From positions 15,693 to 79,692 of the IMG/VR virus record IMGVR_UViG_3300032105_000042: a stretch of DNA of 64,000 nucleotides; one strand, written 5' to 3'. The position numbers and the translations under genes are program-made. Position 1 is the stretch's first letter. Each line of letters starts with the position of its first letter. A model generated the notes under the pieces. That model was not told where the DNA came from. It searched no databases and was given only the letters and a program-made list of their open reading frames with translations. The DNA comes from a virus. Of the stretch, positions 36,116-40,585 are shown piece after piece.

Positions 36116-39100
36116 TTAATCTATGGCCCCAGTGTCCTTCCGAACTTGCTCGCGCGCACTGCTGCGAACCACCTTGGAAACTCTCTCTCGTATGTCATCG
36201 CCAAGGATATCACTTAGCTCCTTCGCGTCTACTTGCGAGAAGTCGATGTCGTCAACCCCGTCGCTCTCGTCATCCTCCCCGATCAGTTCGGCGATCACAT
36301 CCTCGGCGGTCTCCGACTCAGGCTGTTCCTTCTCCTTGGACCGCTCTAGAACGCTTGACAGCAGAAAGACTACCCGTTGGATACGGTACTCGTCAGCTGA
36401 GGACAGCGCTTGTCCGGCCTCGTGGACCGCAACAGCCATTTCGAGTACTTGAGCAATCGGGTCAGAGAACTCCTCTCCGAGAGAAATTCGCACTATCTGA
36501 CCAGTAGTAATCCACCGGAAGGCAGCGCAATCCTCGTAGACTTCCTCTCCGTCGAGCCGACCAACAGCCCTACCAACGACCACGATCTGATCCGGGTTCT
36601 CGTTGATCTCAGCGATGTGACGAGCCGCCGCCTCGGCAAAGCCTCGCATGTCCTTGACATCAGTGTCCAACACACGTGCCCTACCCAGGCTATCCTCGCG
36701 GCGTCGGTCCATGATGAAGCGCGCGAAGACAGGCCTCTCGTCGTCGAGCTCCTCCATGTTCTCGGGCAGGTCCGAGCCAAGGTCCACGGCCTCGCCGTCC
36801 ACGATACGGAAGAAGCTCTTGGGACTAATCAGACGATCCACCGCCTGGTCCCACAGCTCCTCACCATAGGCTCCCTCCGCGATGAGCGAAGCCCTGTAGC
36901 CGAGGGAGATGTCCCGGAGCGTATCGTACAGCGTACCAGGCTCGTCCTCCAAGTCCTCCGCCTGCTTCAGTGGACCACCGATGGCCTGTACCTTGCAGTC
37001 GGCCGAGCTGGCCTCCACGTCGTTGGGGTTGATGCATATGGTCCTCAGTCGCTCGAAGTCGTCGGGGTCCTGCTGCCGCAGCCGCCAGAAGTTCCGCGTG
37101 GTGTCGACCTTGTCGGTACGGAAGTCGTGGTCCTCAGCCCACTCGAGGAACGCCTCCTTGGACTTCCACTTGGACTTGCGACCCGCGATGGTCTGGATGA
37201 CAAAGCCACCCTGCCTCACCTCGTCCTCGTCGTAGATGATCTCCGACGCTCGAACGATCACTGCATCGTGGGCCTGCGCTCCTTCCCCACGACTGACTCG
37301 GACCAGCTCGATGTACTTGGCGTCGACCAGGAGGTCGTCCTCCAGCCAGGCCATGAGCCTGCCCTCCTCGTAGTCGTAGACGAAGATATCGGGGTGGTTC
37401 TTCAGGGGCTCGACGTCCACCCAGCGCAGCTCCGGTGGCTCGCTGTCGAAGTCCTCGCGGATGTGCCGGGCCAGGTGACGCCACACCCCCCGACGGTCTC
37501 CGTCCGGTATGTTCGCACCTCCGCGAGCTCCGTTCAGCACCGCGATGCCTGCCGTAGAAGCACGGAAGTTCACCGCATGTCGGCCGGACGCAACGTGGTG
37601 AGGAAACTTGAAGTCTCCCTTGACCAAGTCGTCGCGCGGCTTACTCTCGCGCCAGGCTGCCATTATGAGGAGGTCTCCCACGGATGCCTCTCGCACCTCG
37701 CGGCTCGCGCTCCAGGCAGCGTCGCGACCCTGAGCCGGTGTACCATCGGGATGAGCCGTCTGGAACGTAATGGGTCCCTTGCTAGTCAGCTTGACCAGCT
37801 CTCCCGTGATGGCGTCGTCGCTCTCCTCCTCGACTTCGTACTCGACTCTGGCATCGTCCATCTCGAAGATCAGGGCACCGTCGTCGAGCGTGACCAAATC
37901 CACGTCCCCCCGCTCGATCAGTTCGCGACTGACTTCCGTCCTCTCCGGAGGCTCGCCGGAGAGCGAGACGGCTCCCAGGCTATCTATCGTAAACGAGAGC
38001 TCCTGCGGCTCCTGACTCGGGTCATCTGGATCCTTGGGAGCCAGAACTATCCCCGGAGTCGTCTCCGCGATCTTCGCCAGGTTGGCCCGCGCTAGCTCCT
38101 CCTGCTTCTCCGGAGTGAGAGCCGTCGCGACAACTGTCTTGTCACCATCTGCCGCCCGGCGTATTTCCATCACGTCGTCCGCAGTGACACCCAGGCCAGC
38201 GAACAGCTCCTCCACGTTGGCCCAGTTGTCCTGCATGTCATCGAGCCAGGCCAGATAGGGCTCCATAGTGGCTCCGTCGCTTAGAGCACGCACCACTGCC
38301 TCGGGGTTGGCCGGTAGCGGAACGATGGAGAACTCGAGCAGGTCGATCTTCTTGAAGTCGATCCCCATGGTCCGCTCACCATCCTCGTCCTCCAGACGCT
38401 CGAAGTTGACTGGTATGAAGCCTATGGACGCTGCCTTCAAGCCACCGACCTCAACGATCCGAAAGATAGTGTCGGCAAACTCGAATACGTCTCGCTCGAA
38501 GAACTCCACATCTGCGTCCAGAATGCCATCCCCGCGCTCGATCTTCGGAGACTTGCCAATCGGTGGCTGACGAGCGTCGTGAGCGAACAGCACTACTGGG
38601 TTCTTGCGGAAGTTCTTGAGCTGAATGCCCTTTGACCGTATAACATCGCCATGGCGGTCCTTGGTCTCCGTAGAGATACGGAAGCGGCGGCGTCGAGGGT
38701 GAGATTTCTTGTCATCTTCGTCATCACCTCCGCCTCCTCCCTTCTTTATCTTCATCACATCCGCGATGCGCGGGTGCTGGAGGAGCACACCCTCCAACTC
38801 GTCGGGTGTCTCGGTCAGGAGCTTGCGGGCACTCCTCTCACCGGTCCACAGACGACGTCCGGTAAATACCTGTAACTGATCCTTGTCCTTCATCGGATAG
38901 GTCCTTTCATAGTGCAAGGCCAAAGCTGCTGATCTCTCTGTCTCTCGGAGAGCCCGAAGCACAGCGCGCTCCTGTACCTCAAACCCCTGCCGAAATGCGT
39001 GGCGAAACCTCCGCTCTATTGGTATGCGAAAGCGCTCCCCTGCCTTCCAGAAATGAGCGCGACGTTCCTCTGTATCAAGATTCCTAGGCCAAACTACAGG

Positions 39101-40585
39101 AGGAGTACCACCTCTCTCCTCACCTGGAGGGTCAACTTCAGTTTGACCATCTTCCCATACAAACTTGTCAAGCCGCCCCTTCAGCTTGAGCTGTTTAAAT
39201 GACACCTCATAAAGTCCAGCCAGAGACATAGACAAAGTCGTATCTACACCAATCAATTCTACTTCAGCAATCGTGACTTTTCTTATAACCGGACGGCCAA
39301 GTATTACATCTACCTGTATCTGATCTTCATATACATTAACGACACGGAATTGGCTACCACGCTGTAGTAACAATTCAGATTCCTCTTTCAATCCGAGGTC
39401 ACCGGGAAGAGTTCGTCTCCTTCTTGCTCTACTGCTGAACAGCTTACCCGGACTAACAAAACCTGCGCGTGAATTCTTTGGCACCAGTATCTTATAGAGG
39501 ACCCTATCTGCATCTACCTTAGTTCGGCCAGCCACGAAAATTTCTGCAACAGTACGATCCAATGACGTAGATGTGAAGGCGCGGTGCTTGAACGTTCGGC
39601 CAATAGCGTCGATCGGTTTACTAACATTAAAATGCTTAGTAACACTCCGACCACCTCGCCACGCTACGACATTCTCGGGTACGCGAGTCTTCTCAAGAGC
39701 CTTCTCAATAGCTCGCCCCTCTTTCGTTAGTATGCGAGAACGGAGGTCACTATTAATCCCTCTATAACCACCTCCTGTATAGCTATTTATTCTCTTAAAT
39801 TCCTGTCCCGTTAGATCTTCCGCCCATTTTTCATAGCTCTTTTTGGCCCACTTCTGAACTTCTGGATGTGGTCTCCTTGGCTTCTCATTTATTGTGAATT
39901 CTTTCGCTGGCTCCCCAAAGCAGCCAGGATTGACCGTGCAACTGTCGTCAACCTTTGGAACTGAGATAGTCGTGCAGCGACAGTTTACCGACTCCTCCGC
40001 CGTGCTCATTGCACCAGGGAACGGACCGATCGCACCGCTTGGCGACTCAAAGTTGTCATTAACAGGCCGGATCTGACCATCCATACCAGTAGCAAGAGCG
40101 TGAGTGTCTCGGACCTTCGGGTCCTGCGTACTCAACCACTGCTTACCCTCGAAGCCAGCCTGCTTTGTAGCAGCAACTTGACCCGAGTTGAGGGCACGCA
40201 CAGACTCGGTCCTAGCGATGACCAGAGAGCGACGCCCCTGAGCGTCGGCATACACACCACGGACCCGGCGAGCCAGCTTGTTGATCCCCTCCCCGTTCTC
40301 AAAGCCCTCTCGCAGAGTGGCGCGCAGAAGCCCCCTAGTCCTATTATTGATACCAACTATCTGACTACCCGACTGCTCAGCGATGAACTGAACCACGCGA
40401 GGGTCCTTCAGATCAAAGTCTATTCCCAGACCCAGCTCCCTCAACCGCCGCTGTCCCGACGACCTTATGCCCTCGCTAAACTCACCACTGGTCGCCTTGT
40501 CCAGATCCTCGGCCTTCGACGCGTTGGAGATGCTATTAGCCTTATCGTCGTCGCTTTGTTTGACGAGTAAAGAAAAATCCACCAT
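36116..40585 (-). CDS. Polyprotein: MuF (SPP1 gp7-like) + ADP-ribosyltransferase + HK97-type prohead protease + further head-associated domains
   Basis: MuF: VIARTE, KQWLSTQDPKVRDTH, NCRCT. ART: WRG, FTSTS, KEESELLL. Protease: DRHGD, NPVVLFAH, LLEFSIVPLPANPEA. Start at ATG 40585. Confidence 0.85.
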   Translation of the reverse strand: MVDFSLLVKQSDDDKANSISNASKAEDLDKATSGEFSEGIRSSGQRRLRELGLGIDFDLKDPRVVQFIAEQSGSQIVGINNRTRGLLRATLREGFENGEGINKLARRVRGVYADAQGRRSLVIARTESVRALNSGQVAATKQAGFEGKQWLSTQDPKVRDTHALATGMDGQIRPVNDNFESPSGAIGPFPGAMSTAEESVNCRCTTISVPKVDDSCTVNPGCFGEPAKEFTINEKPRRPHPEVQKWAKKSYEKWAEDLTGQEFKRINSYTGGGYRGINSDLRSRILTKEGRAIEKALEKTRVPENVVAWRGGRSVTKHFNVSKPIDAIGRTFKHRAFTSTSLDRTVAEIFVAGRTKVDADRVLYKILVPKNSRAGFVSPGKLFSSRARRRRTLPGDLGLKEESELLLQRGSQFRVVNVYEDQIQVDVILGRPVIRKVTIAEVELIGVDTTLSMSLAGLYEVSFKQLKLKGRLDKFVWEDGQTEVDPPGEERGGTPPVVWPRNLDTEERRAHFWKAGERFRIPIERRFRHAFRQGFEVQERAVLRALRETERSAALALHYERTYPMKDKDQLQVFTGRRLWTGERSARKLLTETPDELEGVLLQHPRIADVMKIKKGGGGGDDEDDKKSHPRRRRFRISTETKDRHGDVIRSKGIQLKNFRKNPVVLFAHDARQPPIGKSPKIERGDGILDADVEFFERDVFEFADTIFRIVEVGGLKAASIGFIPVNFERLEDEDGERTMGIDFKKIDLLEFSIVPLPANPEAVVRALSDGATMEPYLAWLDDMQDNWANVEELFAGLGVTADDVMEIRRAADGDKTVVATALTPEKQEELARANLAKIAETTPGIVLAPKDPDDPSQEPQELSFTIDSLGAVSLSGEPPERTEVSRELIERGDVDLVTLDDGALIFEMDDARVEYEVEEESDDAITGELVKLTSKGPITFQTAHPDGTPAQGRDAAWSASREVREASVGDLLIMAAWRESKPRDDLVKGDFKFPHHVASGRHAVNFRASTAGIAVLNGARGGANIPDGDRRGVWRHLARHIREDFDSEPPELRWVDVEPLKNHPDIFVYDYEEGRLMAWLEDDLLVDAKYIELVRVSRGEGAQAHDAVIVRASEIIYDEDEVRQGGFVIQTIAGRKSKWKSKEAFLEWAEDHDFRTDKVDTTRNFWRLRQQDPDDFERLRTICINPNDVEASSADCKVQAIGGPLKQAEDLEDEPGTLYDTLRDISLGYRASLIAEGAYGEELWDQAVDRLISPKSFFRIVDGEAVDLGSDLPENMEELDDERPVFARFIMDRRREDSLGRARVLDTDVKDMRGFAEAAARHIAEINENPDQIVVVGRAVGRLDGEEVYEDCAAFRWITTGQIVRISLGEEFSDPIAQVLEMAVAVHEAGQALSSADEYRIQRVVFLLSSVLERSKEKEQPESETAEDVIAELIGEDDESDGVDDIDFSQVDAKELSDILGDDIRERVSKVVRSSAREQVRKDTGAID

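Follow-up and report, generated by a model that had tools for sequence, protein, structure and literature searches.

A single phage reading frame joining MuF, a predicted ADP-ribosyltransferase, and a prohead protease

The window, the 64,000-nucleotide stretch of viral DNA analyzed here, carries on its minus strand a frame that is free of stops from 36116 to 40702. Translation probably begins at the ATG at 40585–40583, which lies 4 bases past the TAG of the upstream ORF and lines up with the N-termini of three relatives in alignment A1. The initial annotation proposed a single ORF at 36116–40585, with no internal stop, that fuses MuF, an R-S-E ADP-ribosyltransferase (ART), and an HK97-type protease. 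The open frame, the likely ATG, and the 1489-residue product bear this out, and all three Pfam domains exceed their cut-offs. A protein search returned a protein identical to the ORF product, P0002, whose numbering is used throughout (P0002 numbering is P0001 numbering minus 39). The features are as follows.

36116..40585, minus strand: whole ORF (P0002), 1489 amino acids plus stop, with MuF, ART cassette, linker, S78 protease, and accessory domains
39950..40585, minus strand: N-terminal region and MuF, residues 1–212 (Phage_Mu_F, PHROG profiles)
39128..39949, minus strand: ART cassette, residues 213–486, 274 residues (Pfam, motifs, gap in relatives)
39653–39661, minus strand: WRG motif, residues 309–311, with R310 (ART motif inspection)
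39563–39571, minus strand: STS motif, residues 339–341 (ART motif inspection)
39374–39385, minus strand: EESE motif, residues 401–404, E402-S-E404 (ART motif inspection)
38894..39127, minus strand: linker, residues 487–564 (homology to relatives)
38891..38907, minus strand: Shine–Dalgarno (SD)-like AAAGGA (38902–38907), 8-nt spacer, and in-frame ATG (Met565, 38891–38893)
38192..38689, minus strand: HK97-type (S78) prohead serine protease, residues 633–798 (PF04586, PHROG)
37406..37798, minus strand: accessory module A, about residues 930–1060 (relatives, AF2 model)
36926..37228, minus strand: accessory module B, about residues 1120–1220 (relatives)
36119..36925, minus strand: C-terminal alpha/beta domain, acidic low-confidence stretch, and terminal helix, residues 1221–1489 (AF2 model)
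34757..36001, minus strand: major capsid protein, HK97 fold, next gene downstream (PF05065, E 3.2e-44)
48205..49593, minus strand: portal protein, 7.6 kb upstream of the MuF start (PF04860, E 1.5e-32)

Within the ORF, the Pfam domains occur in the order Phage_Mu_F, ADPrib_exo_Tox, and Peptidase_S78, followed by about 690 conserved residues outside named families. Specifically, Phage_Mu_F covers residues 88–207 (nucleotides 39965–40324; E 1.8e-13; 51.7 bits versus a cut-off of 29.6), ADPrib_exo_Tox covers residues 244–419 (nucleotides 39329–39856; E 2.6e-20; 73.1 bits versus 23.4), and Peptidase_S78 (PF04586) covers residues 703–767 (E 2.8e-6; 28 bits versus 21). The stricter NCBIfam models TIGR01641 (36.2 versus a cut-off of 39.65) and TIGR01543 (27.5 versus 59) are not reached, and the AF2 model of residues 1–800 has a mean pLDDT of 43. 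Protease-type PHROG profiles phrog_11321, 617, and 80 span residues 633–798. H669, within FAHD, and S720, within ASIGF, are invariant in all eight rows of alignment A1, and in the 35 rows of alignment A2 the H and S-G-F columns reach at least 90% conservation. The residues beyond the protease, first described as further head-associated domains, are genuine and conserved, although neither a family nor a fold is known for them, and modules A and B both fall outside Pfam families. Module A is conserved as strongly as the protease (71% identity to a relative, L002), and an AF2 model covering it is confident there. Module B also turns up in other proteins, on either side of S78 proteases and, in one case, following a portal. 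G1486, three residues from the end of the protein, is invariant in A1, and the equivalent glycine in A2 shows conservation of 90% or more; the C-terminal part containing it is a candidate capsid-targeting tail.

The capsid protein encoded next to the ORF is 72% identical to that of L002. Its Pfam domain begins at residue 117, leaving about 116 N-terminal residues ahead, and an N-terminal capsid extension is the kind removed by HK97-type proteases. The portal is 62% identical to residues 1–449 of a portal-MuF-ART protein in L002, to whose MuF part the MuF part of the window ORF is 69% identical. The portal matches phrog_2662 at profile positions 58–434 of 717, and the MuF region matches phrog_2468 as well as phrog_2662 at positions 540–708. 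The phage looks virulent: no integrase or resolvase was found in the record, which is rated 79% complete. No immunity gene was identified. The same record encodes a NADAR protein.

The WRG, STS, and EESE motifs of the ART lie where the initial annotation placed them, and R, STS, and ExE are also conserved in the L002 ART. Among solved structures, the domain comes closest in sequence to the ART components of VIP2-type and other binary toxins (best E 9.3e-11), while the "Alt-like" profile phrog_802 matches weakly (E 9.6e-5). The domain looks intact and is predicted to be enzymatically active. As a rule, the E-x-E form of the motif goes with an arginine acceptor, which suggests that arginine is the likely acceptor here. 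The ART was also said to be visibly AT-richer, and it is: the segment at 39128–39949 has a GC of 0.46 and a GC3 of 0.40, compared with a GC3 of 0.56–0.87 in the other ORF segments. Similarly, in L002 the GC3 is 0.565 for the ART versus 0.68–0.78 outside it. The ART is found here and in that one distant relative (about 46% identical) and is missing from the closest relatives. Specifically, an ART match occurs in one of the 66 loci examined (L002); in the proteins P0003–P0005 the domain is missing as a single clean 274-residue gap in A1; and neither locus L018 nor locus L019 has a match. Judged by composition and distribution, the ART is a swappable, foreign cassette in a slot after MuF, and this slot is the position at which MuF "polymorphic toxins" carry their effector.

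P0003–P0005 and L018 share the MuF–protease fusion at 73–85% identity, and the four fused proteins form one clade in the tree with 100/100 support. Among the 66 loci, 28 have both matches, and in 27 of these MuF and protease lie in separate frames or ORFs. The IMG/VR contig L002 has MuF, ART, linker, protease, modules A and B, and C-terminus that are homologous to those of the window and in the same order; its ART is 42% identical, with a GC3 below that of its flanks, and a capsid gene comes next. In L002, however, the portal and MuF-ART form one gene that terminates at a TGA (4984–4986), and the gene for the protease and its accessory domains (protease-X) begins 46 nt on, at 5033, where AAAGGA lies 8 nt ahead of the new start. 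In the window, by contrast, the portal gene is separate, and MuF-ART continues into the protease. L019 has the same two-gene layout as L002. The fusion arose in one small clade, the two-gene form being the common state. In that form, a gene for portal-MuF, with or without ART, precedes a gene for the S78 protease plus about 690 residues of accessory domains. Loss of the stop and the 46-nt spacer joined MuF to the protease gene in the small clade, and in the window MuF also stands apart from the portal gene.

The junction retains traces of the two-gene form. The linker and the C-terminal tail of the relatives' portal-MuF(-ART) gene are homologous, and the last 18 or so codons of the linker stand in for the stop and intergenic spacer. 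The SD-like motif, its spacing, and its position match the true protease gene starts in L002 and L019 and are kept in the fused L018, and Met565 is conserved in P0003–P0005 (A1). Nucleotide identity to L018 is 91–96% in 30-codon windows within residues 542–601 and 53–89% in other windows; likewise, pS is 0.16–0.27 around the internal ATG and 0.50–0.73 elsewhere. The conserved patch, seen in one sequence pair, could instead be a recent recombination tract. Met565 is a candidate internal start, and a 925-residue protease-only product is likely made too. Because the SD and ATG are retained in frame within a conserved nucleotide patch, two products are likely, rather than a fixed stoichiometry, and the earlier suggestion that the fusion guarantees stoichiometric packaging becomes doubtful. 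One can further argue, on principle only, that a protease always carried on the 165-kDa chain would bring a very large protein mass into the prohead.

With moderate confidence, we interpret the ORF as a real gene for a head-assembly polyprotein that evolution has maintained in an uncultured siphovirus-type phage from marine sediment. We infer the use of an internal start, packaging into the head, cleavage, injection, an active enzyme, and a target, as follows. Translation from 40585 would yield the full MuF-ART-protease-X chain, and translation from the retained SD/ATG at 38893 would probably also yield protease-X alone. Both products, with their common conserved C-terminal part, would enter the procapsid, where the protease would be active. 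Processing there would release a MuF-ART fragment that is retained in the head, exits with the DNA, and ADP-ribosylates a host protein. The most reasonable function is that of an effector that is packaged and processed by the protease, by analogy with the printed MuF-toxin proposals (PMC5576092) and with the T4 gpAlt precedent as outlined in PMC9958956.

Alternatively, the read-through could be neutral or incidental, with MuF(-ART) and protease-X working separately and the covalent link roleless, removed, or ignored. The two-gene form is indeed the rule, the fusion is confined to one small clade, and with the old SD/ATG intact protease-X is probably still made alone. We nonetheless consider this unlikely. 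The link persists in five sequences across about 20–25% protein divergence, and the dN/dS of the linker against L018 (0.07, compared with 0.12 for MuF and 0.09 for the protease) points to purifying selection on it. Moreover, 11 of the 13 MuF-bearing ORFs of relatives scanned are fused to a head-core protein (portal in 10, protease in 1), which suggests that the tether matters.

Likewise improbable is that the ART acts without injection, either late in infection inside the cell making the phage or, during assembly, on components of the phage itself. Packaging and ejection are themselves predictions; the NADAR protein hints that ADP-ribose chemistry may have a role within the infected cell; and the phage looks virulent, whereas the MuF-toxin survey ties such toxins to temperate phages (PMC5576092). 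Yet the ART sits between two procapsid-acting domains in a late structural operon adjoining the capsid gene, and its L002 homolog is fused to portal-MuF. Printed surveys also place MuF-fused Alt/VIP2 ARTs in the head (PMC9503650). We judge it quite improbable that the full-length chain enters the head uncut and serves as a large internal or ejection protein, with the "protease" and accessory domains serving mainly as a loading handle. The strong conservation of the 690-residue C-terminal part fits such a role, as does the N4 virion RNA polymerase, which PMC5512222 describes as packaged unprocessed despite a peptidase domain needed for encapsidation. Against it, the protease His and Ser are invariant, the capsid protein has its N-terminal extension, and no second protease was matched among the ORFs scanned.

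Contigs of run X2, which belongs to a sediment study independent of the probable source run, X1, are identical to the window over 36164–36497, 37617–38006, 38036–38473, 38487–38908, 38909–39143, 39358–39638, and 40022–40278, taking in the region of the junction and some of the ART; over 40320–40700 there is one difference. A related X3 contig spans 38760–38974 and is gap-free there, and the junction is open in L018 and P0003–P0005, which come from other assemblies. Although this is a metagenomic contig compared with contigs rather than raw reads, 38908/38909 is not spanned by any one X2 contig, and X2 leaves 5 of the 30 bins uncovered, an assembly or sequencing artefact in which a lost stop or frameshift falsely joins two genes is highly improbable, both sides of the junction being identical in X2.

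The proposed arrangement has partial counterparts. The nested lambda head genes C and Nu3 use an in-frame internal start in a protease/scaffold gene, giving two products with a common C-terminus, as proposed for the window ORF. Here, however, the internal start is inferred from a conserved SD/ATG and nucleotide conservation, and the long form adds an effector. Orion gp9, like the window ORF, has MuF and then protease in one protein, directly after the portal gene. Its likeness to P0002 is limited to the MuF part (BLASTP E 1e-4); it has no PF04586 match at E ≤ 0.01, and it lacks the ART and modules A and B. The T4 prohead protease belongs to family S77. T4 gpAlt is also an R-S-E ART: about 40 copies go into each head, and a prohead protease, gp21, trims it by removing an N-terminal peptide (PMC9958956). 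In T4, unlike in the window, Alt and the protease are separate genes, and a targeting peptide takes the place of MuF in loading.

Fusions of MuF with an ART and of MuF with a protease have both been published before. The MuF polymorphic toxins of Jamet et al. 2017, including the E. faecalis EFV MuF-ART, place a variable effector after MuF; that survey proposes head loading and injection, counts ARTs as 14% of 191, and describes a C-terminal effector, a gene beside the portal gene, and near confinement to temperate phages (PMC5576092). The window ART is instead internal, with 1000 more residues after it, the portal gene is non-adjacent, and neither an integrase nor a resolvase was found. According to PMC9503650, fusion to MuF is frequent among Alt/VIP2 ARTs, and effectors are also joined to the capsid-processing serine peptidase. 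Similarly, the polyvalent proteins with an assemblin-like peptidase, as described by Iyer et al. 2017 (PMC5512222), are head-packaged and multidomain, with a prohead-type peptidase proposed to process the chain. The window protein differs in having a single effector domain, a PF03496 ART (VIP2-like by sequence), and 690 residues after the peptidase. Thus, the parts are known fused in pairs, and MuF, an intact-looking ART, and a capsid-maturation protease in one protein are a new combination.

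The initial annotation placed a single ORF fusing MuF, an R-S-E ADP-ribosyltransferase (ART) and a prohead protease at 36116-40585 of the window. These coordinates are exact: the minus strand holds one frame that runs uninterrupted from 40702 to 36116, and the product, P0002, has 1489 residues. The most likely start is the ATG at 40585-40583; it lies 4 bases past the TAG of the upstream ORF and lines up with the N-terminal residues of three relatives. We rejected a 39-codon extension to a TTG 5' of this ATG, which overlaps the upstream ORF; the relatives begin at the ATG. At Pfam gathering scores, the following domains are called in P0002, whose residue numbers are used throughout:

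Residues 88-207, minus strand: Phage_Mu_F (PF04233), E 1.8e-13, 51.7 bits, above the cut-off of 29.6
Residues 244-419, minus strand: ADPrib_exo_Tox (PF03496), E 2.6e-20, 73.1 bits, above the cut-off of 23.4
Residues 703-767, minus strand: Peptidase_S78 (PF04586), E 2.8e-6, 28 bits, above the cut-off of 21

A six-frame search gives ADPrib_exo_Tox (PF03496) 78.1 bits, and PHROG protease-type profiles widen the protease region to residues 633-798. Against the stricter NCBIfam cut-offs, MuF scores 36.2 bits, just below the 39.65 set for TIGR01641 (SPP1 gp7 family), and the protease scores 27.5 bits against the 59 set for the equivalog TIGR01543. Thus, both are divergent members of their families rather than equivalogs; specifically, its profile scores mark the protease as a divergent S78 member and not an HK97 gp4 equivalog.

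The ART motifs occur in order, as WRG at 309-311 (R310), S339-T-S341 and E402-S-E404, and all are kept in L002, a viral contig that is about 46% identical. We take the R, STS and E-x-E of P0002 to be the catalytic motifs. By sequence, the closest solved ARTs are the enzymatic components of binary toxins, VIP2-type and others (best E 9.3e-11). In the protease, H669 and S720, presumably the active-site His and Ser, are invariant in eight of eight aligned rows and at least 90% conserved across 35 rows. The AF2 model of residues 1-800 (mean pLDDT 43) is unusable. We note that a window-specific, Arg-rich insertion of 10 residues (385-394; window 39404-39433, minus strand) lies just before the ART E-x-E and is missing in the L002 ART. 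A role as a loop for cleavage or auto-modification would be pure speculation.

That the fusion is an assembly artefact is very unlikely. The runs in which the sequence occurs carry the label of marine sediment metagenomes. One of them, X1, is a possible source of the contig and is not counted as independent support. Contigs from X2, a run from another study, were compared to the window (5 of 30 bins have no X2 cover) and are identical to it over 36164-36497, 37617-38006 and 40022-40278, over 39358-39638 in the ART interior and, spanning the junction together, over 38036-38473, 38487-38908 and 38909-39143; one difference occurs over 40320-40700. No single X2 contig crosses 38908/38909, and a related contig from a further run, X3, passes gap-free through 38760-38974. 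More tellingly, MuF and the protease share one frame in three close relatives from other assemblies (P0003, P0004 and P0005, 73-77% identical) and in a fourth, L018 (about 85%). Comparison of the window with L018 gives a dN/dS of 0.12 for MuF, 0.07 for the linker and 0.09 for the protease. In a tree of 20 rows of protease-X, the S78 protease with its accessory C-terminal part, the four fused proteins group as a single clade (support 100/100).

The surrounding minus-strand genes make up the late operon of a tailed phage:

50516-52168, minus strand: terminase
48205-49593, minus strand: portal
46332-46880, minus strand: GH108 endolysin with a PG_binding_3 domain
45475-46314, minus strand: BTLCP-type cysteine peptidase
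43013-44086, minus strand: 'virion structural protein'
34757-36001, minus strand: HK97-fold capsid protein, the next gene after the fusion ORF (PF05065 from residue 117)

Past the capsid gene come connector, tail-tube, tape-measure and tip genes. The endolysin, the cysteine peptidase and the structural protein lie in a portal-to-MuF block (40590-48204, minus strand; 7.6 kb, about ten ORFs) that occupies the site of the portal-MuF fusion in relatives; it is unusual for lysis genes to lie inside a head module. Two genes upstream of the fusion, a 679-aa ORF (40902-42941, minus strand) has no Pfam, PHROG or NCBIfam match and consists mostly of about two dozen copies of a repeat of about 17 residues, rich in Gly, Val, Gln, Leu and Ala. 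Tandem Repeats Finder reports nothing on its DNA, so the copies have diverged.

Relatives point to the origin of the fusion. We ran tblastn with P0002 segments over 66 loci (15 on viral contigs and 51 on metagenome contigs, some of them near-duplicates). Both MuF and the protease are matched in 28 of the 66, as separate ORFs in 27 and fused only in L018. Of 13 MuF-bearing ORFs of relatives scanned with Pfam, 10 carry portal and MuF together; the remaining 3 are one cut by a contig end (L013), one with an intein and no portal (L057), and the L018 protease fusion. In L057, a distant relative, the MuF gene (4524-6686, plus strand) is split by an intein/HINT domain (PF14890, E 5.5e-11; PT-HINT, E 1.5e-9). 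The best outgroup, L002, has one ORF that joins portal, MuF, a homologous ART (Pfam E 1.3e-28) and the same linker and ends in TGA; its protease-X is a separate gene that starts 46 nt later. L019 has portal, MuF and linker with no ART, followed by protease-X. The window portal shares 62% identity with the portal region of the L002 fused protein, and phrog_2662 is split between two window proteins, its first half matching the portal and its second half MuF. From these portal-MuF ORFs, the portal identity and the split phrog_2662 match, we infer that in this lineage MuF exchanged the portal for the protease as its fusion partner. It now lies 7.6 kb and about ten ORFs from the portal gene, to which its orthologues are fused.

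The ART, by its distribution and composition, is a cassette. Residues 213-486 correspond to a single clean gap in P0003-P0005. This segment has a GC of 0.46 and a GC3 of 0.40, whereas the eight remaining segments of the ORF have a GC3 of 0.56-0.87; its amino-acid make-up differs little from the rest, so the GC difference lies at synonymous sites. The ART segment of L002 is likewise low in GC3 (0.565 versus 0.68-0.78). Between the window and L002, the ARTs are 39-46% identical and the flanking MuF and protease 69-71%. No repeats flank the cassette borders. Of the 66 tblastn loci, L002 alone has an ART match, and it is also the only further ART relative in our word- and pattern-based searches. 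Specifically, there were 4 matches among 8000 scored candidates (P0002 itself, plus three relatives by linker only), none among 3012 shorter candidates, 1 among 211 pattern stretches from viral contigs (L002's own contig) and none among 396 from metagenome contigs; given the word or pattern limits of these searches, absence is weak evidence. The tree of protease-X rows gives no resolution among L002, L019 and the fused clade and does not decide between an ancestral ART that was later lost and an ART gained twice.

The fused ORF retains the start signals of the separate protease-X gene. In all two-gene relatives, the protease-X start precedes a conserved R-L-W-T-G motif by 11-18 codons and follows a Shine-Dalgarno-like (SD) motif, which in L002 and L019 is AAAGGA followed by 8 bases and ATG. 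The window has the same arrangement in frame within the ORF: AAAGGA at 38902-38907, 8 bases, and the ATG at 38891-38893 (Met565). Fused L018 has AGAGGA, 8 bases and ATG, and Met565 is kept in P0003-P0005. When the window is compared with L018 in 30-codon windows, nucleotide identity reaches 0.91-0.96 within residues 542-601 versus 0.53-0.89 elsewhere, and the proportion of synonymous differences is 0.16-0.27 in this patch versus 0.50-0.73 in flanking segments. An alternative account of the patch, which was compared in a single sequence pair, is a recent recombination tract. The RNA fold of 38783-38962 is not unusual (z = 0.07), and no Rfam family is found in 36000-41000. We consider a working internal initiation region probable, with a predicted 925-aa protease-X made beside the full-length chain. 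Phage lambda C/Nu3 has a nested layout like that of the proposed long and short products. The initial annotation had argued that the fusion guarantees stoichiometric loading of the effector; that argument is weakened by a probable second product, protease-X translated from the retained SD and ATG at Met565.

In P0002, 1070 residues, protease included, come after the ART, and 690 come after the peptidase. These C-terminal 690 residues match no Pfam family, and tblastn of the last 689 aa against 50,697 phage records returns one weak match, to Moorella phage MTATph1 (E 4e-4). HMMER with the same 689-aa query against 1.84 billion representatives returns 2155 matches at E <= 0.001, 853 of them at E <= 1e-10, and these cluster on module A (residues ~930-1060) and module B (~1120-1220):

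37406-37798, minus strand: module A, recurring in many cluster representatives (P0012-P0157), no Pfam family
36926-37228, minus strand: module B, recurring in many cluster representatives (P0012-P0157), no Pfam family

Among 29 representatives scanned with Pfam, 18 have Peptidase_S78, 1 has a portal domain and 10 have no Pfam family. Module B stands on either side of the protease, depending on the protein. Module A, 71% identical between the window and L002, is conserved as strongly as the protease. The AF2 model of residues 801-1489 is confident (mean pLDDT 84.3) and consists of small beta and alpha/beta domains in a chain with a long terminal helix; a conserved Gly lies three residues before the C-terminal end. 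None of the structural searches gives a convincing fold match for this part. Specifically, Foldseek against the PDB returns 0 matches at E <= 0.001, BFVD 2 unnamed matches at E <= 0.001, the ESM Atlas a best score of 0.76 (unnamed), and a profile of the 35-row alignment against PDB sequences 0 at E <= 1. VIA-align against 48,161 chains reaches a best Z of 5.4; one domain fills the list, so modules A and B are barely covered. Because the multi-domain model covers these modules poorly, we do not call their folds new.

Elsewhere in the window, a NADAR protein is encoded at 60083-60526 (minus strand; PF08719, E 4.8e-27; TIGR02464, 81.9 bits, above the cut-off of 73.7). Thus, the phage that encodes the ART also has a member of an enzyme family associated with ADP-ribose derivatives. 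At 7606-8274 (plus strand) lies a circularly permuted protein of the YpsA SLOG family (E 1.2e-31); in PMC9503650, this family, like NADAR, is tied to NAD/ADP-ribose-derived signals. At 1472-2347 and 2344-2934 (both minus strand), a 5-hmdU DNA kinase helical domain (E 3.6e-52) adjoins an HNH/NUMOD3 homing-type endonuclease, and a dCTP deaminase/dUTPase-like gene is found at 19483-19965 (plus strand). From its gene content, the phage probably hypermodifies DNA thymidine. The 1076-aa ribonucleotide reductase large subunit (55542-58772, minus strand) has an HNH_3 match and a weak intein-splicing match inside its barrel domain, which probably mark an intein that carries a homing endonuclease. An adjoining 303-aa ORF (58773-59684, minus strand) matches a PHROG 'transposase' family (E 4.9e-10) and may be a mobile element within the phage genome. 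The window holds no tRNA.

Comparison with known systems locates what is new. MuF polymorphic toxins (Jamet 2017) have an N-terminal MuF followed by an effector, as does P0002 (MuF 88-207, ART 244-419). Their effector is C-terminal, whereas 1070 residues follow the ART here; their gene lies directly after the portal, whereas the window portal is 7.6 kb off. They are carried by temperate phages or prophages; the window's record, a linear, 79.8-kb IMG/VR virus rated 79% complete, has no match to the tyrosine or serine recombinase families (PF00589, PF00239). Polyvalent proteins (Iyer 2017) join several effectors in one chain, with any assemblin-like peptidase at the C-terminus; P0002 differs in having one recognisable effector and 690 residues after the peptidase. 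According to PMC5512222, polyvalent proteins lack Alt/VIP2 ARTs and in every case have their peptidase at the C-terminus. HK97-type protease genes lie beside an HK97-fold capsid gene with an N-terminal extension, and the window agrees (next gene, PF05065 from residue 117). Cluster B1 mycobacteriophages, in which MuF-protease fusions are already annotated, have the same domain order; only MuF aligns with P0002 (E 1e-4), and on these alignments the two fusions are probably independent. Likewise, MuF-ART fusions (PMC5576092, PMC9503650), effector domains fused to a capsid-processing serine peptidase (PMC9503650) and prohead-type peptidases in packaged multidomain proteins (PMC5512222) are already in print. 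For the MuF-ART-protease triple fusion, a narrow literature search found no description; the architecture supplements of PMC5576092 and PMC5512222 may list one.

We propose that the full-length chain and protease-X alone would both enter the procapsid, where the protease would mature the capsid and cleave the long chain. MuF-ART would then remain in the head, exit with the DNA and ADP-ribosylate a host protein. HK97-type proteases are targeted through their C-terminal part, and the MuF relatives are portal-bound or portal-fused. Published proposals for MuF-fused Alt/VIP2 ARTs (PMC9503650) and for MuF toxins (PMC5576092) agree with this mechanism, as does the precedent of T4 Alt/gp21 (PMC9958956); the 2017 survey, PMC5576092, proposes from gene context that MuF-linked toxins are head-loaded and injected.

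Tentatively, these elements could be joined into a nested cistron with two outputs, a combination that we would sooner doubt than defend as a whole. The upstream start would yield low-copy MuF-ART-protease-X, and the retained internal SD and ATG would yield bulk protease-X. Through the common C-terminal part, the effector would enter the procapsid by the protease's own route, not by portal fusion, and would then be released by the enzyme to which it is joined. MuF would always need a covalent tether to a head-core protein, be it portal or protease; the slot after MuF would be one where an ART is gained or lost, including in a phage that looks virulent; and the machinery of prohead proteases would include modules A and B as a common component that has no name yet.

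The phage is uncultured, and each pairwise fusion is already published, both of which limit the importance of the finding. Modules A and B, as an unnamed and common part of capsid-maturation proteins, deserve a family definition. Natural controls exist for the fused form with ART (the window), the fused form lacking it (P0003-P0005, L018), the split form with ART (L002) and the split form lacking it (L019). These four forms would permit direct comparison of loading and processing, and of what the tether contributes, in a heterologous assembly system. For this phage, covalently tying the effector to a procapsid-only enzyme would make head loading hard to avoid.
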